Below are positions 13,954-62,520 of a stretch of 64,000 nucleotides of DNA, piece after piece; the first letter of the stretch is position 1, and the number at the start of each line of letters is the position of its first letter. The position numbers and the translations under genes are program-made. This stretch comes from Octopus vulgaris (Eukaryota): contig OX597820.1 of NCBI GenBank assembly GCA_951406725.2, positions 6,076,001 through 6,140,000 on the forward strand, read 5' to 3'. The notes below the pieces were generated by a model. That model searched no databases. It was not told the DNA's origin and saw only the letters and a list, made by a program, of their open reading frames with translations.

Positions 13954-14041
13954 TGTGGCTGAAGATTGCTCGACATTTTAAAACTGACGTAATACTTACA
14001 GTGTTTAATAAAATGAAGTAGCAAGAAACAATTGTACTACA
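13954..14041 (+). ncRNA. Type I hammerhead ribozyme, intact core
   Basis: TGTGG-CTGAAGA-TTGCT...AGCAA-GAAAC-AATT-GTA-CTACA; stem I 5 bp, stem II closed by TTGCT/AGCAA, palindromic stem III loop. Confidence 0.88.
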
Positions 14042-14861: not shown

Positions 14862-15690
14862 TTTTTTTTTTCTTTTTTAGTTTCGGCTCAGAGCTGCGGC
14901 CATGCTGATGCACCGCCGTTTTGTGCTACACTGTTATTACTAAGAGCCTCCTCTAATATGTGGCACTTGGTGAAGAATGGAGTTTGATATAGCTACCCTC
15001 ATTTGCACCTCTTGCCGTGAGGTAGGTTCATCTGGGACTCTCGACAGGAAGATGTCCAGCTTTGATTTAAAAACCCCTACATCTACTTTGTGCAAGTTCC
15101 CCAGACTCTTTGGGAGAATATTAGAAAGCTGTGGGCCCTTGAAACCCAAGCTGTTGCAGTATCTAGTCCTGAAGTGTATATATATTACTGCATACCTCTC
15201 CCGTCTTCTCTCCAGGGAGTAGAGTCTTAGCTGTTTCAACCTTTCCCAGTAGCTGAGCTGTTCCAAAGAGACGATCTTCTTTGTGAATCTTCTCTGGATT
15301 GCTTCAAGGTCCGCTGTTACTTTCACACTAGTGGGTGACCATAGCTGTGAGCAGTAATCCAGGAGGCTGAGGACGAATGTCCGCCAGAGGACCATCATGG
15401 TTTCCTTATCTCTGGTTCTGAAAGTTCTTAGGATCCATCCAGCCAGTCGTCTGCACTTTGTCGCCATCCTGGTAATGTGCACGTGGAAAGAGGTATCATC
15501 ACTCATGTCGATACCCAGGTCCCTCACTGACTTAGGCTCTGGGATTGAAATTCCTTGTGGACCGGTGTACCCTGTAAATTTAATATTCACTTTTGGATGC
15601 TGGTAGCGCAGGGCCTGGAATTTTTCGGCATTAAACTGCATATTATTATCCTCAGCCCATCTGTAAATTGAGTCCAACTCCTGCTGCAGG
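14862..15690 (-). mobile_element. CR1-like LINE (host), 3' part of ORF2 plus 3' UTR
   Basis: ORF 14940..15677 with W...N.M.FN.EK, VRDLGI, LDYCSQLWSP, LEAIQRRF, SLERRR motifs; internal deletion; A-rich tail. Confidence 0.92.
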
Positions 15691-16830
15691 TTTTTTAGTT
15701 TAGTTTAGTTTAGTTAATTTGGCTCAAAAGCAAATAGCAAGGCCATGTAGGGGGACATGGAGTTAAGTACAGGGTGGTGTTCATGTAAAGAGTTCAGGCC
15801 ACTTGAGGTCAAGGGAGGCTTTGAACAAAGCGGTCGTCGGCATCTTCACCATCTCGTCTGGCAGCTTGTTCCACAGATCCGCAACCCGGACGGAGAAAGC
15901 TCCTCTCCTTCGATTGAGATGAAATCGTCGCAGGTAGAGCTTTTCGGAATGACCCCGCAGCCGACGCTCTGGAGCAGGAGTGAAGAACAGCTCTTTCGAG
16001 AGGTTACACTTTCCGCTTATGATGTTGTGGGCGAGAATGAGATCACCACGGCGGCGGCGTTTTTCCAGAGAATAAAGGTCGAGCGTCCTCAGCCTTTCTT
16101 CGTAGGACAAATTTTTGAGACCATGAACCATGCGGGTAGCCAGCTTCTGGACTCTTTCGAGATGCTGTATGTTTTTGAGGAGATAAGGAGAAGAGGCTTG
16201 AATCCCATACTCCAATATGGGTCTCACCAGCGTGACATAGAGTGGTAGGAATATGGCTGCTGTGAGCATTCCGAATGACCGTCGAATCAAGAACAGAATT
16301 CCGCGTGCTTTGTTGGCAGCATGGACGCACTGGGCCGAAGGCGAAAAGGAGGAATCCACCAAGATACCCAGGTCCTTTACCTGATCGGTCCTCTCCAGCA
16401 GCAGACGACCCGGCTCGAAATCAAGTTGAGTTGCAGGAGTAGAGCCGACAGGCAGATGACAGCACTTTGACACGTTCAGACACAGGTCCCAATCGTTAGA
16501 CCACTTCCAAATTTGGTGGAGGCATCGACGAAGATCCTCTATATTGCCGCGAGGAGCGACCAGTTTGATATCGTCGGCAAACAGAAGGGTGTGTTGTGTG
16601 AGGTCGTCGGGCAAGTCATTTATGAAGACTAAGAACAACAAGGGCCCAAGCACTGAACCTTGAGGCACGCCACTGCTCGCACTGGAGACGTCGGACCGCG
16701 AACCATTAACTTGGACTTGGAAGGAGCGATCTGAGAGGAAGGCACCAACCCATCGTACAATATCCGGATGGAAACTATATGCTTGAAGCTTGACAAGTAA
16801 TAGGCGGTAATAGGCTTGACAAGTAATAGG
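15691..16830 (-). mobile_element. Younger 5'-truncated CR1-like LINE nested in the host LINE
   Basis: GVPQGSVLGP, FADD, uninterrupted frame to the stop at 15781, (AAACT)n tail. Confidence 0.92.
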
Positions 16831-17625
16831 TGTGCAACATCGTTTCTGCGAGACTTTCGTATCATCTGCATAGCTTGCCAGAGTGGCTATCCGGGCATTT
16901 GAGGGCATATCTGAGAGGGCCACTATAAAAAGCAGTGGTCCCAAGACAGTGCCCTGTGGAACACCGCTCACTATTTGTGTGTTCACAGAGTTGGCTCCAT
17001 TAACCTCTACTGCCTGACTCCTATCTTTCAGGAAGTCATGTAACCACACTCCAAGTTTTCCAGCTATGCCGAGGTCAAGCAGTTTGTGGCATATCATACC
17101 ATGAACCTCCTTGTGAAAAGCTTTTGCAAAATCAAGGTATATTACGTCCACATTTGATTTGTTGAGTAACTGCCTCATCACCTAGTCATAATGTTGTAAG
17201 AGCTGGGTCAGGCAGCTCCTATCTGGTTGAAGCCATCAGCAAGTTATTTTCTTAAAGGGATGCGATTAGTTTCTTTCTGATTATCTGTTCCATGACTTTG
17301 CTGATGTGTGAAGTCAGAGAGATAGGCCTATAGTTTTTGGCATCTGCTCTACTTCTCCCTTTATGTATTGGGCATATTATTCCCTCCTTCAGCTTGCTTG
17401 GCAGTTTGATATTTGTAAGAAAGCTCTGGAAGAGAATCTGGAGGGGTTTTGCCAGGGCATGCTTACACACTTTGAGGAGGATTGATGGGAAACCATCAGG
17501 ACCAGCAGTTGAGTTTGTATCCACTTCATCTATGGCTAGTAGTATATCTTCTTCGCTAATGTCAATGTATCCCATTGTAACTGCCTCGCTGGTTATAGGC
17601 GTTTGCTGTAGAATGGGCAACGCTA
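16831..17625 (-). mobile_element. CR1-like LINE (host), 5' RT part
   Basis: GPDG, NYRPISLTS, RSCLTQL, YLDFAKAF, GVPQGTVLGP, YADD; contains stops and frameshifts. Confidence 0.92.
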
Positions 17626-18530
17626 ATGGCCAGCTGGTAGAAGTAAACCAGCCGATGGATTAAGTCTACCTACGAAGAGCAGGTACAGTTGACTCGACAG
17701 GTTCAATTGACCTGACTGTCTACGTTTACCGAATTTCTTTCACAAGAAGTCGAGGCTATGATGGAAGTCATTAACCATAGTGAGTGGGGAGAATTGATAG
17801 GAAAATAAATCTGAACCACAAAGATAGCTCAGCGCCCTTGGGTACATTGCTGTCCTCTAGTAACCCCTGAAAGACAAGATGAATTGAATTGATGCTCCTC
17901 TAGCAACAGGCACTGGCAAGACTGTGGTTAAGAAGCTCGCTTTATGACTATATGATTTTGGGTTCGGTCCCACGGCACGGCACCGTGGGTTTCTTCTACA
18001 AAAGCTTCAGGTCGATCGATGCTTTTTTAGTGAATTTGGTACATGGAAACTGTGTGGAAGCCCATCGTACATGTGTTTGCGTTCCCTGGGTACCACTTGA
18101 CAACAGCTGTTGGTTTGTCCACGACCCTGTAACCTAGTGGTTCGACAAAAGTGACTGAAAGATTAAGTACCAGACTAAACAAAAAAAATAAAGGCAACAT
18201 AAATACTGGGGTCGTCTTGTTTCCCTAAATCCTTTCAAGGTAGTGCCCCAGCATGGCCGTAGTCCAGTAACTGAAACAACTAAAAGATAAACGATAGAGT
18301 TTGGAATTAAGTTTACAATCTTCAAAACCAAGATGTTGATATTGAATTTCATTATAGCAGCATCACCGCCAACAGTCAGACGAGATACAAAACCGTGTAG
18401 GGCGCTGCGCTATCATTTGTGACCACTTGACAGAGAGCAATCAGTTAAAAGCAGGGAAAATATTTTCCCATCAACTTCAGAGTTTTATACACCCAGTGGT
18501 TGTACCAGGCTTATGTGTACATAAAATGAA

Positions 18531-21582: not shown

Positions 21583-21752
21583 ATATTAATTCGAGACAAA
21601 ACCACTATTTTGCAAAACAAACAAGGAAAGACTTAATCAATACATAATTGTCTCGAATTAATATTATATAATATTTTACTATAAAATTGGATTTAATCCT
21701 AAATCTGATTTTTTTCCCTGTAAATTTGGATTTATTCCCTAATATTTATTAT

Positions 21753-21830
<78 letters not shown>

Positions 21831-25529: not shown

Positions 25530-25580
25530 AGCTTCTACAGGACTAGAACTGTTTCATTCAAAAGAAATCATCAGGAAGCT
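25530..25580 (-). ncRNA. Type I hammerhead ribozyme (left arm of palindrome)
   Basis: AGCTTC-CTGATGA-TTTCTTTTGAAT-GAAACAG-ttctagtc-CTGTA-GAAGCT; 6-bp stem I, 4-bp stem III. Confidence 0.85.
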
Positions 25581-25622: not shown

Positions 25623-25673
25623 AGCTTCCTGATGATTTCTTTTGAATGAAACAGTTCTAGTCCTGTAGAGGCT
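25623..25673 (+). ncRNA. Type I hammerhead ribozyme (right arm of palindrome)
   Basis: AGCTTC-CTGATGA-...-GAAACAG-ttctagtc-CTGTA-GAGGCT. Confidence 0.85.
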
Positions 25674-26889: not shown

Positions 26890-28623
26890 CAGTAGTTTTA
26901 TTTTTATTTTTATAGCGTGCTTTCACTTCACTACCGAGCGCAGCTCTGTGTGCCTTGGGAATGTGCTATGATTTGTTGTGATGCTCTGATGGTTATTGTA
27001 TGGAAAGTGTTCTGCGTAGGATGTGTGCAGTGCCTAGTAGTGCAATTTTCTGTATGTTATATGTGTTTGTAAGTCCTGGTGTTTTTGTTATGTATTTGTC
27101 TGAATATTTTTTTATCATGCCTAATGCACCTACTATGATAGGAATTGTTTCTGTTTTCAGATTCCACATTCTAGTTACCTCTATTTCCAGGTCTTTGTAT
27201 TTTGAGAGTTTCTCCATTTCTTTTAGAGACACGTTGTCATCTGCCGGTACTGATACATCAATTAGAAAGCATTTTTTTCTTCATGGTCTCTGACAACTAT
27301 ATCTGGTCTGTTGGCCTTAATTTCTCTATCTGTGTGTATCGGCATATCCCAGAGTATGGTTGCTTTCTCGTTTTCTGTGACCTTTTCTGGTGTGTGCCTA
27401 TACCATCTTTTTTCTGTTGTTATTCCATAATGTTGGCATAGCTTCCAATGTATGTAAGTTCCAACTCTGTCATGTCTGTGAATATATTCCTTCTTAGCCA
27501 GGACTGGGCAGCTAGAGATAATATGATTTATTGTTTCTTGTCCATCTCCACATATTCTGCAGTTACTTGTAATATTTCTTTTCATTACATGTCTTTGGTA
27601 ATTTCTGGTGGGGAGGCTTTGGTCTTGTGCTGCAATTAAAAATCCCTCTGTTTCTGCTTTGAGTCCTGAGCTTCTCAACCATTGCTGGGATTTTTCTTTG
27701 TCTATTTCTTTTGCGTTTAGTTTAGTCCAGTATTTACCATGAAGGGGCTTTTCTTGCCATCGTTTTATCATGGTTCGTTGCTGTTCTATTTTTAGTTTGG
27801 ATTTCATTTTTTTTATAGCTTTTGTTGTTTCTTCATCTTCTTCTTCTTCTTCATGTTTATTAGGTGGTATGATTTCTTGTTTGTATTTGTCAGCTTCCTT
27901 AAATACTGAGAACAGTTTTTTGTTTTGCTCGTGTTTTGCCGCTATCTGGATCAGTTTTCCTTCCTTCTGAAGTAGATATTTTTGCAGTCCTATGGTGGTT
28001 ATTTTATAGTAGTTTTCCAGCTGTATAAGGCCTCTACCACCTTCTATACGTTGTATATATAGTCTTTCTATGTCAGATTTTGGGTGATGCATCCTAGATC
28101 CTGTCATTATTTTTCTTGTTTTCCTGTCTATTTTGGTCAGTTCATTTCGTGTCCAGTTAAGGATATTGTAGCTGTAACTTATAACTGGGACAGCTAAAGT
28201 GTTGATACCTATTATCTTGTTTTTAGCATTGAGCTCTGTGTTTAGTATTGATCTAACTCGTCTATAATATTCTTTTTTTATTTTCTCTTTCATTTGTGTG
28301 TGTTGTGTCTTATCTAGTTCATGGATTCCTAAGTATTTGTAAGTTTGGCTTTGGTCTAATTCTTTTATTTCATTTGCTTCATCTAGTGTGATATTGTTAC
28401 TCTTAACTAGTTTTCCTCTTTTCATGGTTACTTTGGCGCATTTTTCTAATCCAAATTTCATATCTATTTCTTTGGTAAATCCATGAACTGTCTTTAATAG
28501 TGTTTCCAGCTGTTTGTCATTTGCAGCGTATAGTTTTAGGTCATCCATATATAAAAGGTGGCTGATCGTTTTGCCGTAACATTTATATCCGCATCCAGTT
28601 CTATTTAGTTCTAATCCAGTTCT
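26890..28623 (-). mobile_element. R4/Dong-like LINE, 5'-truncated (RT C-terminus, CCHC finger, restriction-like endonuclease)
   Basis: LYMDD, GGRGL, CRICG..ETINHIISSC, RHD, RPDIVV, EK.SKY; one frameshift near 27275; (TAA)n on both sides. Confidence 0.93.
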
Positions 28624-28624
28624 A

Positions 28625-28689
<65 letters not shown>

Positions 28690-29614
28690 CAATAATATTA
28701 ATACGCTAACTTTTAGTTTTTGTTCGCATGTACTAGTGGTGTGTGTCACATTTCAAAGGAAGAAGTGGCAAAGCGGGAGAGAGGAGAGGACAGAGAGGAA
28801 GTGAGAGAAAGAGAGAGAAAGAGTGAGAGCGACAGTGAGCGGTAACAACATACGTTTTGTGTCTTAAAATATTTATCAGAATCTTCAGAGTATACTGATA
28901 CATAGATCACAAGAAAAGTAGATACATAGATACATACACACATTGATAAATTAAAAGCGGAAGAGAGGAGGGACACAGAGGTTGTGAGAGAGAAAGTGAG
29001 AGACGGTAGATTCATAGATCGGAAGAAAAGTTGATACATAAACACATAGACATATTGTTAAATCAAAAACAAATAACTACAACAAATATTAGATGTCACT
29101 TTCACTTTTCATTACCACTCGAGGATAAACTTAACTCCTATGTGGCTGAGTACTCCACAGACATGCATACCATTAACGTAGTTCTCAGGGAGATTCAGCT
29201 TCACACAGAATATGACAAGGCTGGCACCTTTCAATTACAACAACAACTAATCTTCGCCAGTCGAGTGGACTGGAGCAAAATAAACTTTCAAGTGGTTGGA
29301 AGAAGAAGAAAGGAAAATATCCTATAAAGGGGCAGGAAAATCTATTTAGTCATTACGGTCACTATGGATGTTCATCCGGTCCAGCAGCATTTGTGGGTCT
29401 CACATATGTGGAGCCAAGTCCCCAGGTAAACACCGATCTGCAGTCTGTTGTTATCAGACTGAGCGTGAGTCAAGGACGAAGTCACTACAAGACGGAATAG
29501 CAATTATTTCGTCTTAGCTACCACTGCTTATACTAAACAGATGACACTTTTGCCCCACGATATGGAACATTTCCTTTTCTTTCACGCTATCAAAATAAAT
29601 AGCACTTCCTGCTT

Positions 29615-34513: not shown

Positions 34514-34590
34514 ATTCCAAACATGAACAAGCTAGAGAAAACAAGGACGTGGAATAAGTACAGTTCATGAAAGGAAAGAAAAGAAAGAGG

Positions 34591-34625
34591 ATTTCACGTT
34601 TCGAGCGGAGCTCTTCATCAGAAAT
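34591..34625 (-). ncRNA. Minimal Penelope-type hammerhead; cleavage triplet GUG, probably inactivated
   Basis: ATTT-CTGATGA-aGAGCtccGCTC-GAAAC-GTG-AAAT inside a (TA)n-flanked cassette at 34511-34649. Confidence 0.72.
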
Positions 34626-36487: not shown

Positions 36488-37554
36488 TTGGGTTGGAAAC
36501 TAAGTTCCCGCCGTTTTTTAAAATTTTGGAATTATTGCATTTTTAAATTTTGGAATCTATTTTTTTCGAGAATTATATTTTTGAATCATTTTGGAATCTA
36601 TTTTGTATTTTTTCGAGTTAATTTTAGTTAATTTTTGTTTATTTTCAGATCATTAAAATGGAATGTTAAGTTTAAAAAAAACGAGCATTTTCGACACCTC
36701 CTTTATTTTTGCTTTTAATCAAGGTTCTAAGGCCGCAAAAGCTGCTCGTGACATTTCTGCTGTGTATGGAGAGGGTGCCATAGTTGAAAGAACCGCTCGT
36801 GATTGATATGCCAAGATCAAAAAATGGAAATTTTAACCTCAAAAACGCACCTCGTTCTGGCCGTCCAGTTGAGTTCGATGAAGAGCTATTAAACCAACTT
36901 TTGCACGAAAATGCTCGTCAGACGATGAGGGAACAGGCAGAGAAAATGGAATACTCCCACACTGCTATAGAGAAGCATCTTCACTCGATGGGAAAGGTTC
37001 AGAAGTATGGAGCATGGATTCCGCATGCTTTAAGTGATAACAACAAAAATCAACGAGCCACAATCTCCGTTGGTTTGCTTGCTCGTCATCGCTTAACTCA
37101 TGGACACAAACAAAGATTTCTTTACCGAATCGTTACTGGCGACGAAAAATTGTGCCTGTACATCAATATGAAGCAGTGTAAGGAATGGCTTAGCCCCGGT
37201 AAACAAGTGACACTGCATGTAAAACAAGATCTTTATGCGCGTAAAACGATATTGTGCGTATGGCAGGAGTAGGAAGGGATTATCCATTACGAATTGCTTG
37301 AATGGAACCAAACGGTCAACGCGGAACTCTATGTTCAACAGATAGAACGACTCAAAACGGCTATTCAAGAGAAAAGACCTAATCTGCAGCATGGAGTTCT
37401 TCTGCTACACGACAACGCCTGCCGCCCTCATATCGCCAATATGACCAAGGAAGCCATTCAAGGAAGCCTGGCTGGGATTAATTAGTTGTTATTTTTATTA
37501 AACATTTAAAAAATTAAAATTTAAAAAACGGCGGGAACTTAGTTGTCAATCCAA
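36488..37554 (+). mobile_element. Mariner transposon with decayed, internally deleted transposase
   Basis: TIRs ttgggttggaaactaagttcccgccgtttttt / aaaaaacggcgggaacttagttgtcaatccaa, TA duplication; RSGRP, WIPHAL, TGDEK, HDNA present; YSPDL region missing. Confidence 0.95.
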
Positions 37555-37805: not shown

Positions 37806-38182
<377 letters not shown>

Positions 38183-38464
38183 ATATAATACCTGTTCATC
38201 ATCTCCAAACCTTCCAATATATATATATATATATATATATATCTGTATACTATGTAGTATGTCAATACACACTACCCACATAGAAACATATAGATACTCG
38301 AAGACCCTGAAACGCACACTTGAAACGGTCCCTAAACATTTCCACTGAAAATGAAATATTGAACAAAAGCGCTGAAAGATAAATGACAGAGTTAGGGGTT
38401 AGGGGGCAGGGTCGTCCGAAATTCTGTGAATGGCGAACTAAAGACTATTGTAAAGACGACTTAC

Positions 38465-41284: not shown

Positions 41285-42330
41285 CCTATATATATATATA
41301 TACACGATATGATATGATATGTTATTCCTTAAGAATGGTGCCGGGCTATAAGGAAAGCCGTTTCCAGTAACCTTATTTCAACCAAACATTTTACGAACGA
41401 CACAAAATGGAAACCAATAGTGAAAATCAAAAACGGTGAGAACACAGGTGATGGAAACCGAATCTCTTGGCATTTAGTTTGGCGTTCTTGCTTTCTTTCT
41501 GTCTCTCTGTCTGTCGGTCTCCTTCTCACTCTCATTCTCTCCCTCTCCCCCCTCTCTCTCTCTCTCTCTCTGGTACGTCTCACAGAATGTTGCCTGGAAT
41601 GATATTCATCGGCAAAGTGTGAAACTGATAGCCAAACATTAGCGTACTGCCAATATGATTGAATTATGGCAAGTCTGATAAAGCCGGGAAGATATTTTAA
41701 TAACAAGGTGAATGTTACACAAAAAAATGTTCTGATATAATGCGGTTGTAGTTAATGCTGTATTCTGATCTGAATTTAATTAGTAAGATGTTTTATGATG
41801 TAAACCACGACTTTACAGATCCTTTCAGATCTCGACTTCCTTTTCGTAGCTGAGATATTTTGATTTTATTTTGTGAAGTGGGCCAAGTATTTTTACCAAC
41901 ATGAAGTAATATAATACTAGCTTCGTACTTATTCTTTTATGGAAATGCAGTTAGGTTTAATAAATAATCTTAAAGTTTGAATTTACATTTGAAATGAAAA
42001 TAAATTGCGTTTCTAAAACTATCTCACAATTCTTTTCTGTGGTTTTTCAGGAAGAAATAATGTCCATTTTGTTTGTGGCATTATTTCCAGGATTTAATAT
42101 GATTTGAAAAGTAACCTCAGAATATTTCAAGAATATAGTTTTTAAAAGTTTGACATTAAAATAAAATGTCTGTAAAAACCAGAATCAAATTAAAAGTCAA
42201 CCCTGATATACTTGGGATCATAGTTTTGTCTCATTTATAGGAATTCTATAAAATACACTAATCTAAGAAGCCAAATATGTTGTCACTTAATATCAGCAAT
42301 GGAAGTAATATTAATTCAGGATTAACGATC

Positions 42331-42505
42331 TGTATATATACTTAAAGTGTGTATATGTTGAAAGCCTTCTAAACTGCAGTACTTGTCTTGAGAAAGTATC
42401 TGTTATAGACATATAGTTAAAAATATCCTATCAGAGATAGTTTCTCAAGAGAAATTCCGCTGTTTAGAAGGCTTTCAAAATATTCAGCCTGTAAGTATGT
42501 ATACA
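42331..42505. repeat. Imperfect hairpin of about 175 bp (MITE-like)
   Basis: ttgaaagccttctaaac...tcttgagaaa / tttctcaaga...gtttagaaggctttcaa. Confidence 0.85.
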
Positions 42506-43322
42506 AATTATTAAATACGCTATATTTCTAATCCAAATATTAACTACACTTAAAACCAGATTAGCAATCAAATTCCAATGAAGATCAATCTGTAAATACT
42601 TTTCTTTTATTGGAAAGACACACCTACATGTTAGGAAAGATGATTATTGTGTGGGTCCCTCGAGTAACAGGCTACCAAAAGGGTAATACTAGGGACTCAC
42701 AGTCACAAGTCGGTGAACATCTTGTTACTAAAAAGGTAACTCTTTATGTGGAATAGCCGCCATTTCTCTACTCAAGTAAACAGTTACGTCCCAAAACGTT
42801 AATTTGTTCTCATACATTGGAGTTATGAAACGGCACCAGTATGCAGCCGATCGACTTGCTAGAAAATCAGTAAAATCTCAAAAACGAAGTAGGATTCTAA
42901 TGACTAATGTAGCCTTAGAATTGATACACGTTGGAAAAATACTAAATACAATGATAACGAATTGTTGTTAACAAAATGAATGAAACCTGACCGAAGGCAA
43001 ACATCTTTGATAATGTAAGCTATTTCCGGACATCTTTGATAATGACAAAAAACCTCTTTCCGGGCATCTTTGATAATATTTCTGATAGATTAGACCTGAC
43101 ACAGGTCTAACATCCTTAATGTTATTTCCGTTTGACATGGCCTGACGTAGGGCTAACATTTTGGATCTACTTTCGTATTGGGTTAACATCATTGCTCAAA
43201 CATCTGCTCAATCAAACTTGATAAGGAGTTAAAGACCAACAATTCAGACCACGAAATGAATGCTAAGATTTCAAATAAACATAAAGTAAACAGCAGCGAC
43301 TTGAAAGGTGAGAATTACTTAC

Positions 43323-43629: not shown

Positions 43630-43911
43630 AAATATATATACGTATATAATAAGATGAGAAAATAGAGAGGTAATTAATTAATTAATTATTATTTATTAAT
43701 TTAAAAAATTTACAAACATCCCTTACAGCCGTTTCAATTCCAGACCTTCAGAAAATTAATTTATTAAATTAAAATTTATTTGGAAGTCGAATCTCTTCAG
43801 AGGTACTTAAAGATGTACAAAATAGGTGTTTATTTCCTGCATGTTGATGTTTGTCAATCTTTTTAATTAATAAATAACAATTTATTAATTATCTCTCTAT
43901 TTTCTCATCTT
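43630..43911 (-). mobile_element. Hammerhead cassette with about 75-bp inverted termini in (TA)n
   Basis: aagatgagaaaatagagag...acaaacatc versus gatgtttgt...ctctctattttctcatctt. Confidence 0.85.
43718..43806 (-). ncRNA. Type I hammerhead ribozyme with long AT-rich stem II
   Basis: TACCT-CTGAAGA-GATTCGACTTC...GAAGGTCTGGAATT-GAAAC-GGCT-GTA-AGGGA. Confidence 0.8.
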
Positions 43912-44077
43912 ATTATTATAATAAATGAATATATATAAATCACGGTTTATACAGTTACCTTGCAGTTGACTATTAAATATTATGTTCAATATTCTTTTTA
44001 TAGGTAACAAACCAGTACTTTCATACAATTTTGTAATTCTCGAATGAGGTTTGTAACCTTTAATTGAGCTTATGTAT

Positions 44078-44120
<43 letters not shown>

Positions 44121-45686
44121 ATAAATTTTAAATGAGGGTGAGAAATTAGATATTAATTTAATTAACATCTATTTCACACCAGTGGTCTAGCATATAAAAA
44201 AATCTGAAGGTTCAGTAAAATTGTATTATATACATATCAGAGGAAAACCACTATGTGGACACCCTTATGCTAGAAATAGATCCGCTATGGTCTTACCACT
44301 AAGAAATGTTCTCAAGAAAAATTTAGCAAAACCAAATATATACATAGATATATATAATATTTATATATATGTATATATTTATTTACATATATATACACAA
44401 CACACACACACACACACATATATGATATGTAAATACATACACACACACATACACGTATATTTATATATATGTATAAGTTGTAATAATGAAGTCAAACCAA
44501 ATAATGATATTTTGAAATCATTTAACACAGACATTTTAGGGTCGCGTAATATATAATGGGAAATGCGTCCATTACGTAAACCTTCCTCAAAAACAGAAAG
44601 AGATTGTTGGAAAAGTTTCAATATATATATGTGGTTAGAGCTGTAATTCGGCTGTGAACTTAGTAGCGGACTGAAATCTTCCCATCGATCCTTTTCGTAT
44701 ATTAAGGAGTTTTGCTCTCTCTTTGAGATGAAGGAGTCACTGACCTTATTTTCGTATGTGTTGTTTATGAAATCACGTGCATTTTATCAAGAATACGAGT
44801 AGATTTTTAACTGCTTTCTGTATGTCATCCATGCCACGGGTTTGTATTATAAACAAAATAATATTATTGATCTCGGTGAAGATCTTTGTCCTTCACTTTA
44901 GAGCGACACATGTTAATCCATAGTCACTCTTTTAACCTTTCCCATCCTAAACTAGTCGGGTGGTGTCTGTGTGAAACATGCAAACCGATTTGCTTCTACC
45001 ATATCCTGGTCTTTAACCAGGATGGACTCGGATTGGGCCACATAACTTCATTCAGAACTTGGCTGATAACAAACTTTTGGTTGTTAATTTTCGAGGCAGT
45101 GGGTGTTGCTGCACCGTCAAAACCATCCACCAAGTTCTAAATCTCTGCACCAAGGAGGACAAAGGTACATTCAATATTAAACAACGCTTTCTATTTCTCT
45201 AATGAATAAAAATATAGTCTTGGTCTTAATTTTGAGGAGTTACCTCTTAAATAGATTGGAATCAGGCCTTGTCAAATTTGGATACGACTTTGAGTCATAT
45301 GAGAGTTCCTTAAACTAACAAACTGAAAATATGGCTGGTGCTTTTCCTCGTCTCACTTTGACTCAGCCTGCAACACAAAACAGTGCAAGGCTTAGGGCTT
45401 ATTTACAAGCCCTAAGCTTTGATGTCACATATATAAATCTTGAAGAATTTCGCTTCCTGAAGACATCTCTTATTCCCCATTTATTCCTATTCCGTCTGAT
45501 TCTTTCGTTGATTCTTTCATCTTTGATGACAAGGCATCATGTTACAGATGGTGACGTCAGAGCACAATGACCAAAGTCAGTTACTACAGGTCAATTTGTT
45601 TGACGCGCTAACTATCACGTCGTTTAAACCGATACTTTTTTTACCGAATTCGGACGGAAATGAAAATTATATGTAACTGGATTTGA

Positions 45687-45753
<67 letters not shown>

Positions 45754-45795
45754 CATATATACATACGTATATGTACATACTTACATCTATACGTG

Positions 45796-45882
45796 ATAAT
45801 TATTCGGTAGCCATGATAAAACTCAGAGTTTCCGCCCCGACATCCGAAACTCGGAGTTTTATCATGGCTATCGAATGATTGT
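45796..45882. repeat. Palindrome made of the 3' half of a hammerhead cassette
   Basis: 37-bp arms; the right arm starts GAAACTCGGAGTT, which resembles stem III. Confidence 0.8.
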
Positions 45883-46174
45883 GACATATATTTGCAGATA
45901 AATCCCTCTATTTACATAATATCGAGGTCTCTTTCATTCTTTTGTTGTCTTACAATTTCTATCAATATATAAATCTATATCTATCTATCTATCTTTAAAC
46001 AGCCGAAATTGCTAAGATGATCCGGTTCCGACTGAAGATTTGAGGCTTCGAGTGACCCGTCTGTTTTTTTTGTGTCGTCTCTTTGTGTGTTTTTGCGTTC
46101 TTGTCCCACTTTGTAATTGTGTGTTTTTGCGTTCTTGTCCCACTTTGTAATTTATATTTTATATTTAATTTCTA

Positions 46175-46230
<56 letters not shown>

Positions 46231-46706
46231 TATATATATACATATGGATACGTGCGTATGTATGTATATCACATTTCTCAAATATAAATATATAATGTAC
46301 ACACAAACGCACACACACACACACACACATACATACACGCACAAACAATATGCATATAGAGACAAAGAGACAGACAGATAAATAGAGAGGAGGATAGTGC
46401 GTGTATATATGTACAAATATACGTGTCTGTGTGTGTTTATATGTTCATGTTGTGTCTCGTAATTGTAGTTGTTGTTGTTGTTGGTATAGTTGTGTTTCAA
46501 AGTTGGAATGTACGTTATAAAGGCAAGTTCGCCTTTCATAGTCGGGGGTCCATAGTCAGGGGTTCATAAAAGAAAATTAAGGAGTTATTGGGACAAATCA
46601 ATAAACGGTTTCTCTATATTTCGCTAAATTGGCGCCACATCTCGTAAACATCTCAACATTTACTCTTTCAAATATATATATATATATATATATATATAAT
46701 CAGACG

Positions 46707-46758
<52 letters not shown>

Positions 46759-46851
46759 CTTTCTTCTTCTCTTGTACTCATCGTCGCAAACACACACACA
46801 CACAGAACATTCAAATACACACATACGTATGTATATATGTAAGTATGTGTG

Positions 46852-46928
<77 letters not shown>

Positions 46929-47035
46929 TTATACACACATTTTGAATTATTACATTTTGATGTATGCATGAATGTATGTATATATAAACATATATTCATT
47001 ATATCTACCCACTTACCTAAGTCTCTAACTATCCA

Positions 47036-47072
<37 letters not shown>

Positions 47073-47559
47073 TTTCTATATACACACGCACACACAAATA
47101 TACATATATATGTACAAAGACACATATACATGTTTATACACATATATGTATCCATATATACTCACAAACATATACCCATGAACACACACAGACACACACA
47201 CATTCCAAGTCACTTAGTGGCCTTTTAGTTTTTGTTCTCTCTCGTATTTAATGTGTTATATACGAGCAAAACATGGTTTTGTACTTGTAAAACACAAGCT
47301 ACAATAAATCAGCGTGTACAACAGCATATTTATTATGTGTGTGTATATATATATACATATATGCATATATGACAGTATATAAATAGATATTTGTATATGA
47401 GTGTTGTTTGTTGAATGTGAGGAGAACGAGGCAACACACTTGGGTACTTGTGTTTGGAATAATAAATTATTATATATCCATGCAATCCCAAACATATGTT
47501 CGGCTTGTGTTTATATACATCTCATAAATATTTCAGGCTCTTGCGGTTTACATACATAC

Positions 47560-47604
<45 letters not shown>

Positions 47605-47670
47605 AATATATCTATATATCTATATGCATACATATGTAAATATATCTATATATCTATATGCATACAAATG

Positions 47671-47736
<66 letters not shown>

Positions 47737-47934
47737 TGTATGTATGTATGTATGTATATATTCAACCTATTCACATCTCACTGTAGAGTCATCAAATATA
47801 TAAACACCAACAGTAATTGTGTCTCTCTACGCAGAAATATACAGATATACATAAATGCATATTTGCATTCATACGGGAGCATATGTGCATACATACATAT
47901 ATAATTACATGCATACATGTATGTGTATGTATAT

Positions 47935-47965
<31 letters not shown>

Positions 47966-48112
47966 AGTATGTAGATGGAGACATATATGCACATCGATAG
48001 AGAAGCATAACTGTAAAGATTTACGTCTGTACCCATATACACTTAAACTCATTTATATTTTATACATATAGTATATATAAAAAAATATATATGTATATAT
48101 ATATATATATAT

Positions 48113-48143
<31 letters not shown>

Positions 48144-48271
48144 CATACACATACATATATATATACATACATATATCTATTTATATATATAAATATATAT
48201 ATATATGCATACATATATCTATATATACATATACCTATTTATACGTATATACATACATATATCTATATATG

Positions 48272-48318
<47 letters not shown>

Positions 48319-49666
48319 GTATTCACACATCCACTCATATACACACCATATTTGTGGTAAACCAGTTGACCTTATTCTACACCCATTCTGAATACACTCC
48401 ATTATAAAAGTCTATCAGCTCCTGTAAACATGGCGGCTGGTTTTTATTATGTATATTGTGATGTAAATATTTAACGAAAATAACGTATTTCTAAAAGGTG
48501 TATATGTATATATATTCCTATATGTATGAACACGTGAGCGTATATATGTATATATTTATTTATACGAACCTGCATGAACGCCTGCATGTATGCGCTCATT
48601 TGTATCTATATATGTGTGCGTATGTCTGTGTGTGTATATTTTGTATTGTGAATGCTTATATAACTATGTGTCTGTGTGTGTCTTTGTATATGTTTATATG
48701 TTAGTAAATGCACCTGTGTGGTCTAATTAATTGTGTAATTATGGTTTAATTATATAAGGTGTGTGTTGGGTAGGGTTTGACCGTCGTTAATATTCTCAAT
48801 GTATCATTCAATCAAGGATTGCCTCCCCTCCTCTCCACGTGACCCGTATAATAGTCCTGTTGTGTTGGCATACCCGGTATATCACATAACTATACGTTAC
48901 CAAGGGGCGCTGCAAAGTTGAAACAGCAAAATATCACGTTAAATAACTTTATGTTCTGCGTTCGATACCAAGCTATGTAGATGTTATCCTCTATTCCTCC
49001 AGGGATGATAAGCAAATATTGCTAAAAATGTATCAATATTCAATCGATTACATTGTCACTATTGTTTTATATCCTGTTCAAGTCAGAGCTAAAGACAAGC
49101 CGTGGTCATCATACCTGTTTCGTGGTATTTGCGGCAACTCAGTTCGAAATATACCTGCTTGCTAAAATGGTATGGTGTGACCCGAGGAAGTCTCACAGGA
49201 CATTCAACCATTTAGAATTCCCTTCGTTGAACCGAAATAATCTTTTCTACTTTAGGCACACGGCCCGAAATTTTGGGGGCGGGGGTGGGGCAGTTGATTA
49301 GATCGATCTCCAGTATGCAACAGGTACTTACTTTAATCGACCCTGAAAGGATGAAAGGCAAAGTCGACCTCGGCGGAATTTGAACTTAGGACGTAAAGAC
49401 AGACGAAAAACCGTTAAGCATTTCGCCTGGCTTTCTAACGTTTCTGCCAGCTCAGAGTTAGAAAAATAATGTTGCAGGATTAGATATCCGTATGGAACAT
49501 GGAGGTGCGTGGTTAGGGGCGATGAAAACTCTCGTGATACCGTAATTGCAGATGTGAAAGAGGTCGAGGCGATCGATTGGTGGGGACAATTGTGGCCTTT
49601 TCCTTTATTAGGGCTTCCAAAGTAGGGATGAAGAATTTAGTACGGAAGCTAAGAAGAGAATATACA

Positions 49667-50056
49667 GGCGGAGCTGCGTAGTAAGAAGCTTGCTTGCCAA
49701 TCATATGGTTCCGGGTTCAGTCCCGCTGCGTGGCGACTTGGACAACTGTCTTCTACTATAGCCTCACACCGAGCAAAGGCCTTGTGAATAGGTTTGGCCG
49801 ATGGAAACTGAAAGAAGCCCATGGTATACATACATAATACATACATACATATATATGCAATATCCCTGCATATCTCACGTCTATTTTCGTTCCTCCACTT
49901 CACTCTCTATTTCATATCTAGAATAACCATTTCTTAACCATCTTCTCACACCGTCTCCGATAAAGGGATATATAAAATATCCCGGAAACAGCTGTATGAC
50001 CTTCAATTTATAAATGTTCTGAAATCTTTCACAGCCTTGGATTTTTATCTCATTCT

Positions 50057-50128
<72 letters not shown>

Positions 50129-50512
50129 TGTACATTAGGACACATTAAATGACTTCCAAATAGGAAAGCCTTGTGCTAGAAAGAGCAGTAGAAACCACAA
50201 ACCACTAATTATATATATAGTCTATTGAAATTTTTTGGTGCTAGACCACTGGTGATAATAATTTCTACAATTCTTATTACCCTAATATTATTTATAAATA
50301 TATATATATCTATGTGTGTGTGTGTGTGTGTGTTTTGGGACCTGTGTTTGTCCTGCACCACCGCCTGACAGCCGGTGTTGGTGTGTTTACATCTTCCTAA
50401 CTTAGCAGTTCGATATAACAGGGCAATAGACTAAGTATGAAACTTTAAAAACATAAATTCACGATGGTGCCCCAAAATGGCCGCAGTCTAATGCCTGAAA
50501 CAAGTAAAAGAT
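49667..50512 (+). mobile_element. SINE family B split by two nested cassettes
   Basis: 5' half at 49667-49825, 3' half at 50330-50512. Confidence 0.8.
49952..50000 (+). ncRNA. Degenerate type I hammerhead
   Basis: GTCT-CCGATAA-aGGGATA tataaaa TATCCCg-GAAAC-AGCT-GTA-TGAC. Confidence 0.65.
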
Positions 50513-52803: not shown

Positions 52804-53105
52804 TATATAATTGTTAAAGAAGACAACAAACATTATGGCAAACATCTCAAGTCGTATACATTATTATTATTATTCAAAATCTTACAGCTGTTTCTGGGCT
52901 GTCCCAGAATATGGGATATTCAGTCATCAGAGACAAATAAGGAAAAATGGGGAGAATGAGAAGGGTATATATTAATGAAATGACAAAACAGAGGAAGGAA
53001 GTAATGAAATAAGGAGATGAAGAGAGAAGAAAAAGAAGCATAAAGTTCATAGTTCAACTTTCATCCTGCGCAGAACGTTTGTTGTCCTCTTTAACAATTA
53101 TATAT
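52804..53105 (-). mobile_element. Hammerhead cassette with 28-bp inverted termini
   Basis: tatataattgttaaagaagacaacaaac / gtttgttgtcctctttaacaattatata. Confidence 0.85.
52879..52934 (-). ncRNA. Type I hammerhead ribozyme
   Basis: GTCT-CTGATGA-ctgaataTCCCA tattc TGGGAcagccca-GAAAC-AGCT-GTA-AGAT. Confidence 0.8.
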
Positions 53106-56271: not shown

Positions 56272-56565
56272 AAAACAATTGCAGCATGTTTATAAGCCAT
56301 TTAAAAACACACACACACACGCAAAACCCTTCAGATTATCTTCAACATTTAAATTTAATTTATCAAAATATTTTCGTCGCTTTGAGACCTCGATCTGTTC
56401 ACTGTCAAAATCCGTGCTGAATTTTGAATTTTGTCAGTGAACAGGTCGAGGTCTCAAAGCGACGAAAATATTTTGACAAATTAAATTTATATGTTGAAGT
56501 GAATTTAACGGTTTTTGTGTGTTTCTTAAATGGCTTATAAACATCTTCTACGCTGCAATTGTTTT
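56272..56565. repeat. About 290-bp palindromic cassette
   Basis: aaaacaattgcagc...tttgagacctcgatctgttcact / agtgaacaggtcgaggtctcaaa...gctgcaattgtttt. Confidence 0.95.
56430..56480 (+). ncRNA. Hammerhead variant with G3-C8 core (inverted copy at 56359-56410)
   Basis: TTTGTCA-GTGAACA-gGTCG...CGAC-GAAA-ATAT-TT-TGACAAA; 7-bp stem I, palindromic stem III. Confidence 0.72.
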
Positions 56566-61797: not shown

Positions 61798-62520
61798 CCT
61801 GAACGCACTCGTATAGTTTCCAACCATTTCCGACCTGTGGGCCTATGTCGAACGACTGCTATCGAGTGTGGGACGAGTCGGTTTAGCAGCCGAGTCTATT
61901 GTCAATATCGTCGCGCTTCCTTCCTTCAAACGGGGAAAGAAGAGCCATTTTCATCGTACTTGTGGCTATGGTGAAAGAATGTGGTATGGCGGACGCGTCT
62001 GAAAGGTCTAGAGACAAATACTTTCCTCTCTGGTCAATCTCTCATCAACTTCTTCAAGTATCACTTGAAGAGGAAGGTGAGAGTAGAGAGGAAAGTTTTG
62101 TCTCGTGAAAGTCTCAAAAGAAGATGAGTGAATGTAGCAAGGATGGCACGTGTGAATGACGAAGTCACCTTGAGCATAATCCTATGAACCAAAAAAAGAA
62201 AAAGAAAAAAAAAAGAAAAAAGAAAATCACATACTGTAATGCGTTTTTTTTAGCATGATATTTATTGCTCGAGGTTACCGTAGTATTTTCCGTAGGCTTT
62301 TCTTTCTACGGATAAACCTAATCTGTTTCCCCTCTTTACACTATGACATTTCTTTGATACAATATCCCCTATTGATCGTTTTTTTTGTTAACGATCCCTT
62401 TTGATCGAATTTCTACCCCGCTTTCCTTTTTTTTCTTTTCCTTCTCTTTCCCCCAGAGAAAAGATCTACTTTGTATTTTGTCCCCTCTGTGTTCCGGCGT
62501 TCCGTGGCCAATAAAGACAC
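61798..62520 (+). mobile_element. L1/Tx1-like LINE 3' fragment with 3' UTR
   Basis: Frameshifted [14 protein letters not shown]...AMVKECVVWRTR...FFKYHLKRK...; AATAAA at about 62510; flanked by TCTA/TCTG repeats. Confidence 0.65.

Follow-up and report, generated by a model that had tools for sequence, protein, structure and literature searches.

The reverse transcriptases (RTs) of Penelope-like elements (PLEs) form the sister group of TERT. PLE copies can be truncated at the 5' end and inverted in part, and their targets are (TA)n repeats (PMC8557442). Canonical PLEs carry hammerhead ribozymes in their pseudo-long terminal repeats (pLTRs; PMC4209133), and in Octopus vulgaris PLEs make up 6.83% of the genome with 190 families (PMC13282606). 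It has been asked whether hammerheads merely parasitise PLEs (PMC8557442). Hammerhead cleavage was not needed for PLE insertion in vitro, and a PLE RT binds and needs RNA close to the end of the element and initiates within a stem-loop (PMC11167929). R2 proteins recognise a structured 3' untranslated region (UTR) (PMC12503042). Here, a window of 64,000 nt from Octopus vulgaris (GCA_951406725.2, contig OX597820.1, positions 6,076,001–6,140,000 of the forward strand; all coordinates below are those of the window) was analyzed, in which two TA-embedded cassettes, copy 1 and copy 2, share a predicted RNA fold close to their ends. This fold may be a binding and priming signal for the RT of the element and is likely not a catalyst; a probability of roughly 0.45 is given to this reading.

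With the hammerheads of PLE pLTRs (PMC4209133), the motif has in common a position ∼30–190 nt from a TA-embedded end, truncated or inverted copies and a junction of three helices, but its sense strand has no CUGANGA, GAAA or UH core, its junction is U-rich, and two extra hairpins (P4 and P7) are present. Naiad PLEs (PMC8557442) are likewise truncated at the 5' end, show inverted pieces, use a (TA)n target and have no canonical hammerhead. However, the cephalopod Naiad consensus ends shown in that paper do not match the motif, which was not found by short sequence terms in the supplement either, and cephalopod Naiads are called long inactive there, whereas the family described here has many near-identical contigs. 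A Naiad identity based on a likeness of four residues was rejected at the DNA level. In two octopus Naiad consensus 3' ends from the same paper, a cleavage-site-like triplet, GAAA and CUGAUGA could be identified by eye in site-G-C order. This order, with stems I and III pairing, corresponds to that of non-circularly permuted hammerheads (PMC10085705). Stem II is unclear, and one of the two ends had been flagged by the authors as a half core (PMC8557442). The Poseidon PLE of Anolis (PMC11167929) resembles the cassettes in that a stem-loop at its end lies close to where the RT is inferred to start, and differs in having a hammerhead, while a three-way junction is not described in the parts of that paper examined. 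In R2 (PMC12503042), structured RNA lies just before the priming end, which is the working model here; R2 targets ribosomal DNA and is likened to the cassettes by its arrangement.

Copy 1 (44120..44335, minus strand) is the 5'-truncated 3' end of a high-copy repeat and is flanked by TA/TG microsatellites. On the minus strand it contains AGTGGT (44300-44295), CTAGCATA (44273-44266), a second AGTGGT (44252-44247), TATGCTAG (44194-44187), ACCACT (44186-44181) and GGTG (44180-44177). In copy 2, GTGCTAG-ACCACT-GGTG is located at 50238-50254 on the plus strand, and AGTGGT (50206-50201) and CTAGCAC (50179-50173) on the minus strand. Sequence inspection confirmed that the blocks named in the initial annotation are present at the stated positions, and that in copy 2 the shared blocks are split by an inversion. 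Its upstream half is the inverted one (50126..50209, minus strand; P1 5' strand 50201-50206, P2 50185-50198, P3 5' strand 50173-50179, P4 50151-50170) and is separated by a junction with a short TA run (50207..50219) from the downstream piece on the plus strand (50220..50297; P3 3' strand 50238-50244, P1 3' strand 50245-50250, P7 50251-50281, then a tail up to the TA run), so that the break falls in an internal TA-rich stretch. The P3 strands are spaced 71 nt apart in copy 1 and, measured from one piece to the other, 63–73 nt apart in copy 2.

Each half-motif occurred exactly twice in the window, compared with means of 0.03 and 0.00 in shuffled sequence, and two or more matches were found in 0/100 shuffles. 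Therefore, the two cassettes are considered to be related. Relaxed motif searches of the window did not reveal a third copy. The full motif had no matches in metagenome and genome contig collections, and a 21-mer had none in genome contigs. Partial patterns matched 80 loci (6, 18 and 21 in viral sequences and 35 in metagenomes); none of them contained the complete motif, and all were regarded as chance matches. TA-rich repeats adjoin all four cassette ends, and TA runs are common in the AT-rich window (86), which also contains SINE-like repeats, LINE remnants and one transposase remnant. The repeats look similar to those known from octopus genomes.

Folding was performed with ViennaRNA, which predicts nested structures only and leaves a pseudoknot itself unscored. 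The topology common to both copies is predicted to be a nested three-way junction on the same sense strand, formed by P1 (AGUGGU/ACCACU), a small hairpin P2 and P3 (CUAGCAY/RUGCUAG), with P4 inside P3 and P7 as terminal hairpin. In copy 1, read from 44304 downward on the minus strand, the P1 5' strand AGUGGU (44295..44300), which is identical in copy 2 and has no listed variant, had a pairing probability of 0.91–0.92 when the 5' end was set at 44312 or 44303. It is followed by P2 (44278..44293) in a 21-nt junction spacer, a U-rich linker of 4 nt and the P3 5' strand CUAGCAUA (44266..44273), again without a listed variant. P3, completed by UAUGCUAG, closes a multiloop that opens with P4 (44241..44265), which contains the second AGUGGU (44247-44252), and continues with a variable part (44195..44240), in which two weak hairpins are accompanied by an internal TA-rich stretch and a run of U. 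The 3' strands of P3 and P1 (44181..44194) are adjacent without a linker and are predicted to stack coaxially. P7 (44137..44180), closed by GGUG/CACC, directly follows P1 and ends 15–20 nt before the TA microsatellite, the intervening AU-rich tail (44120..44136) being the putative start region of reverse transcription.

The stability of whole folds was compared with 300 shuffles and that of single hairpins with 1000 shuffles each, using segment limits fixed by the conserved blocks. The copy 1 fold reached -47.3 kcal/mol (z -4.85) and was equaled by 0/300 shuffles. P7 was equaled by 0/1000 and P4 by 48/1000 shuffles, and P2 of copy 1 is weak alone (134/1000). The halves of copy 2 were folded as two strands, assuming that both originate from a single element, and gave -36.5 kcal/mol (z -2.53, 5/300 shuffles), compared to -24.1 kcal/mol (z -0.48, 84/300 shuffles) for the opposite strand. 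P2, P4 and P7 of copy 2 have sequences unlike those of copy 1 at equal positions, and 12, 7 and 10 of 1000 shuffles, respectively, were as stable. Copy 2 no longer favored one strand when DNA parameters were applied (-17.8 versus -18.3); a strand preference that is seen with RNA parameters alone points to an RNA with G-U pairs.

Among the 14 base pairs of P1 and P3, 12 are identical in the two copies, one is compensatory (U44267-A44193 versus C50173-G50238) and the eighth P3 pair is broken in copy 2. Of the helix covariation proposed in the initial annotation, the compensatory P3 pair is thus real, but covariation is restricted to this 1 of 14 pairs. The accompanying statement that the spacers differ completely was too strong: both are 21 nt long, end in CU(A/C)UUU and contain a hairpin, and only 2 places match in their first 15 nt. 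These comparisons also bear on the view that the helices have no function today and are left over from an ancient inverted duplication. Inverted repeats frequently arise when PLEs insert (PMC8557442), and the 12 identical pairs do not covary. However, the blocks have been retained beside a spacer with only those 2 matching places in its first 15 nt, the helices are without variants, and the three hairpins have unrelated sequences, which makes a relic hardly probable. The folding, the shuffles and the family variation described below support a conserved RNA structure, and thus more than a duplication at the DNA level.

The two pairings had originally been proposed to cross in a pseudoknot-like manner. 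This was not supported, since the second AGTGGT is without a counterpart in copy 2 and in copy 1 sits in a CCAC/GUGG hairpin; within the nested structures scored, its pairing with ACCACU had a probability of only 0.004–0.14. The TCTGA/TCAGA stem proposed along with it is private to copy 1, as position 44238 has another letter in ∼98% of the depth in run X1, and the gtgtcc match takes different structural places, inside P4 in copy 1 and after P4 in copy 2. The fold is apparently real, constrained and undescribed, and apparently a three-way junction and not a pseudoknot. A description of the motif was not found in the literature searched; Repbase and Dfam lay outside this search, so the family may already bear a library name. 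Telomerase RNA CR4/5 (PMC3950677) also has a three-way junction with one short hairpin, but the U and G of the P6.1 loop match the loop of copy 1 only and not the differing loop of copy 2, so that a P6.1 hairpin could not be recognised, and the junction purines are absent. Inspection further dismissed an ENE triple helix, as the U-runs are not opposite one another, a tRNA-like end, in which a 71-nt loop would stand in place of the T loop, the internal complementary region of DIRS elements, for which the blocks are too short, and a selenocysteine insertion sequence (SECIS).

For a survey of the family, contigs from four sequencing runs, one per organism, were aligned at 80% likeness to the copy 1 stretch, and 2249, 1447, 1561 and 939 contigs, respectively, were matched. 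The stretch was present, in whole or in part, in 21/24 listed runs from 11 studies and four organisms. No RNA run was listed among them, apart from some entries with small shares that are guessed to be RNA. The copy 1 family is clearly abundant, and the initial count of only two copies holds within the window but not beyond it; depth of contigs in these runs is not equal to copy number. In the variant table, which was weighted by copy number and showed only differences of at least 3%, 24 variable places were present between 44160 and 44306, the span where variants were listed. None was located in the 28 bases of P1 and P3, compared with 24/119 elsewhere (p=0.004); this narrower span was picked after the data had been seen, and the first Fisher test, over 44137-44320, resulted in p=0.014. 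Paired places were also less variable (10/91) than unpaired ones (14/56, p=0.024). The multiloop part 44195-44240 accounted for 10/24 variable places and 3/5 listed indels.

Variation within the hairpins could be examined as well. At 44244, the majority letter of the family turns a G-U pair of P4 into G-C, and by eye three pairing versions of the P4 base were observed, GGG/CCC (family majority), GGA/UCC (loose-end consensus) and GGC/GUC (copy 2). In P7, two pairs would be lost through the family variants at 44175 and 44177 if the opposite bases stay unchanged. Further subfamilies were recognised by eye among the loose ends of contigs listed. One of them keeps the P4 base with other pairs, and another (8 contigs in run X4 and 12 in run X7) retains the 21-nt register and a P2 of four pairs, with 2/6 bases of the P1 5' strand changed (UGUAGU). 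Loose ends before 44131 were heterogeneous (agreement 0.64–0.75), and those behind 44320-44332 had a common continuation (agreement 0.65–0.88) that extends the family at least 60 nt past the 5' partner block. Heterogeneous ends on one side and shared ends on the other place the terminus on the P7 side and indicate that copy 1 is truncated on the other.

A block with an inverted partner followed by a hairpin near a fixed terminus is also known from rolling-circle transposons of the Helentron type. The 14–16-nt block and the terminal hairpin could then be a DNA end with a subterminal inverted repeat (subTIR) and a palindrome. Helentron-associated elements (HINEs) have subTIRs of 12–15 bp at 38–60 bp from the 3' end and a palindrome 8–35 bp from it, and subTIRs can be common to otherwise divergent families (PMC4067079). 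Distances in the cassettes agree with this arrangement, with the block 48–57 nt from the end and P7 ending 16–17 nt before the terminus. However, the inverted partner is split by the 21-nt hairpin and is not terminal, so that no intact subTIR is present, the family continues for at least 60 nt past this partner, the flanks and target are TA runs and not TT, copy 2 is inverted, and one strand is preferred under RNA parameters but neither under DNA parameters. A Helentron end is therefore regarded as very improbable.

The plus strand of copy 1 also folds well (z -2.63). If this were the functional strand, the motif could be a 5' leader, that is a translation or promoter element, just before the ATG at 44306. 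This ATG is located 5 nt past the final helix, several loose-end variants retain it, and the junction linkers would be A-rich. An improbable reading nonetheless results, since the hairpins of copy 2 need G-U pairs and weaken or vanish on the plus strand, the fixed terminus would be a 5' end, the frame stops after six codons in the window, 44306 varies in 3–10% of the depth, and the likeness of the frame to the N-terminus of Naiad_Obim was not borne out by its DNA.

TA flanks at 4/4 ends, and a constant 3' end combined with truncation on the 5' side and with neighboring pieces in inverted orientation, seen in loose ends, in strand-changing contig joints and in copy 2, match the traits of PLEs. 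The cassettes are therefore quite probably ends of a Penelope-like retroelement. An origin from the 3' UTR of an R4/Dong LINE was rejected, as the 3' UTR of the element in the window has a different sequence with a TAA-repeat end and no match to the motif. The LINE remnant with this TAA-repeat end (26890-28752, minus strand) has RT and zinc-binding Pfam matches and is presumably R4/Dong-like, based on its motifs. Other mobile-element traces are RT-bearing LINE remnants at 14943-17659 (minus strand), a Transposase_1 remnant at 36784-37482 (plus strand) and long imperfect palindromes at 37846-38241, 56272-56565, 42322-42514, 45788-45890 and 62011-62104, possibly fold-back insertions of mobile elements.

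Two sibling cassettes in the window hold type I hammerheads with a long stem II, at 43724..43800 (minus strand), inside a TA-embedded cassette (43646-43916) that also carries an inverted copy of its tail, and at 13959..14036 (plus strand), with a cut site 28 nt before a TA run. Both pass the strict descriptor, compared with 0.03 matches expected in the window, and both were missed by Rfam. Their cut sites are 28 and ∼80 nt from the cassette ends, the latter as read from the sequence, and the end of P1 is separated by 57 nt from the end of copy 1 and by 48 nt from that of copy 2. The proposal that the motif occupies the slot in which siblings hold a hammerhead is thus borne out by comparable distances from the TA-embedded end. 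As both copies are 5'-truncated, that the cassettes are hammerhead-less holds only for the last 205 nt and ∼30 nt of loose ends. Hammerhead-like cores that failed the strict descriptor were observed at 52883-52930 (minus strand), at 34590-34621 (minus strand) and, as an inverted pair, at 25541-25574 (minus strand) and 25629-25662 (plus strand). The tail of copy 2 had its best match (score 27 versus 23 for the next) in a cassette at 21.7 kb. This TA-embedded cassette (21583-21756) has 17-bp inverted repeats and an end like the tail of copy 2, and AGTGGT is present on its minus strand without the rest of the motif.

Occupying the slot of the hammerhead, the fold might itself be a self-cleaving ribozyme, undescribed or rewired in its class, that takes the place of the hammerhead and cleaves tandem transcripts, possibly only when aided by the protein of the element; this is considered rather unlikely. 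The three-way junction has conserved lengths, and an order partially like that of ribozymes of the hepatitis delta virus (HDV) type is found in both copies, where a purine-starting helix is followed by GG after its 3' strand, a hairpin and CU(C/A)AU, corresponding to C-N-A. However, a 3-bp P3 with a short L3 before the helix, a P2 closing after the C and the nested double pseudoknot of P1, P1.1, P2 and P3, as defined for HDV-like ribozymes, were not found (the descriptor gave 0 matches, and Rfam none at E<=10). The GG is paired within P7, and in relation to the cytosine that opens J4/2 in such ribozymes (PMC10879173), CU(C/A)AU follows P7 in both copies without a P2-type partner strand after it. 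A similar end is also present in the unrelated cassette at 21.7 kb. Junction bases common to both copies are mostly U, and no pile-up of copy ends was seen among those listed, for which contigs are a weak source.

Searches for known classes pointed in the same direction. The Rfam scan suggested initially gave 0 matches in the window at the gathering score and 52 and 11 matches at E<=10, mostly microRNA models on microsatellites, with no ribozyme among them, though the sibling hammerheads had been missed too. The hammerhead core CUGANGA, GAAA and UH with stems I-III had 0 strict matches on both strands of both cassettes; the one relaxed match, on the plus strand of copy 1, falls on variable places. 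Twister, twister-sister, pistol, hatchet and hairpin ribozymes were likewise not found by Rfam at E<=10, where its sensitivity is limited. Relaxed searches with short motifs gave one twister-loop and one pistol match, neither in both copies, and the pistol motif was also present twice in the hammerhead control. Among the descriptors, a positive control was available for the hammerhead only, where a sibling was recovered. By the Rfam search and the descriptors, the earlier impression that the motif fits no known ribozyme is upheld. In a similar screen of places where a ribozyme was expected, none of the tested non-hammerhead candidates cleaved (PMC10085705). The more specific proposal that three-way junction and stacked terminal hairpin together represent a new class of self-cleaving ribozyme, which has replaced the hammerhead in an abundant PLE lineage with very many genomic copies in at least four related animal species, is somewhat more doubtful still.

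A role in binding and priming for the RT is preferred for the fold. It builds on the shared blocks, the TA flanks, the family in four organisms, the constraint on P1 and P3 and the inversion of copy 2, together with the predicted fold and strand. The bases common to both copies are mostly helical, and with a junction of mostly U this is taken to resemble a protein-binding site more than an active site. In the proposed mechanism, the RT/endonuclease protein would bind the stack of P3, P1 and P7 and nick (TA)n DNA, and cDNA synthesis would begin in the AU-rich tail, 15–20 nt past P7. Early stops of this synthesis could yield 5'-truncated copies such as copy 1, and a second priming event at the internal TA-rich loop could produce the inversion seen in copy 2. 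In the twin-priming model, second priming during target-primed reverse transcription yields an inverted upstream half. The inversion of copy 2 at a TA-rich stretch, with the spacing kept, is the pattern expected of such second priming. Binding and self-cleaving roles can also coexist, by analogy with R2 (PMC6765202).

Several observations weigh against this reading. If the 5' end is moved to 44335, which adds 23 bases, an upstream rival hairpin at 44302-44334 (minus strand) can sequester the 5' strand of P1, whose probability drops to 0.005; the two outcomes may reflect a model error or an RNA that switches between two folds. P1 and P3 contain only one compensatory pair, variation disrupts pairing at 7 of the 10 paired places that vary and preserves it at the other 3, and the plus strand of copy 1 folds well too. 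Copy 2 enters on the assumption that its halves come from one element, and the variant table depends on copy-number weighting and its 3% threshold. Although 6/11 listed joints change strand, these are single contigs at 80% likeness and possibly repeat artefacts. No GIY-YIG domain or PLE-type RT was detected by Pfam beside the cassettes, whose copies are truncated, in the 72/176 candidate frames searched. The likeness of the tail to the hammerhead sibling did not reach significance (5 other flanks of the 184 compared had the same score of 22), and the hammerhead siblings are without this fold, which would therefore not be a general PLE handle.

The fold bears on how RNA is processed and primed in PLEs without a canonical hammerhead. 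With a conserved fold other than a hammerhead in that slot, and many natural variants in the family, this becomes testable. A fold that cuts would represent a ribozyme class new to science and derived from animal genomes; otherwise, it would be a defined candidate RNA handle of a telomerase-related reverse transcriptase.

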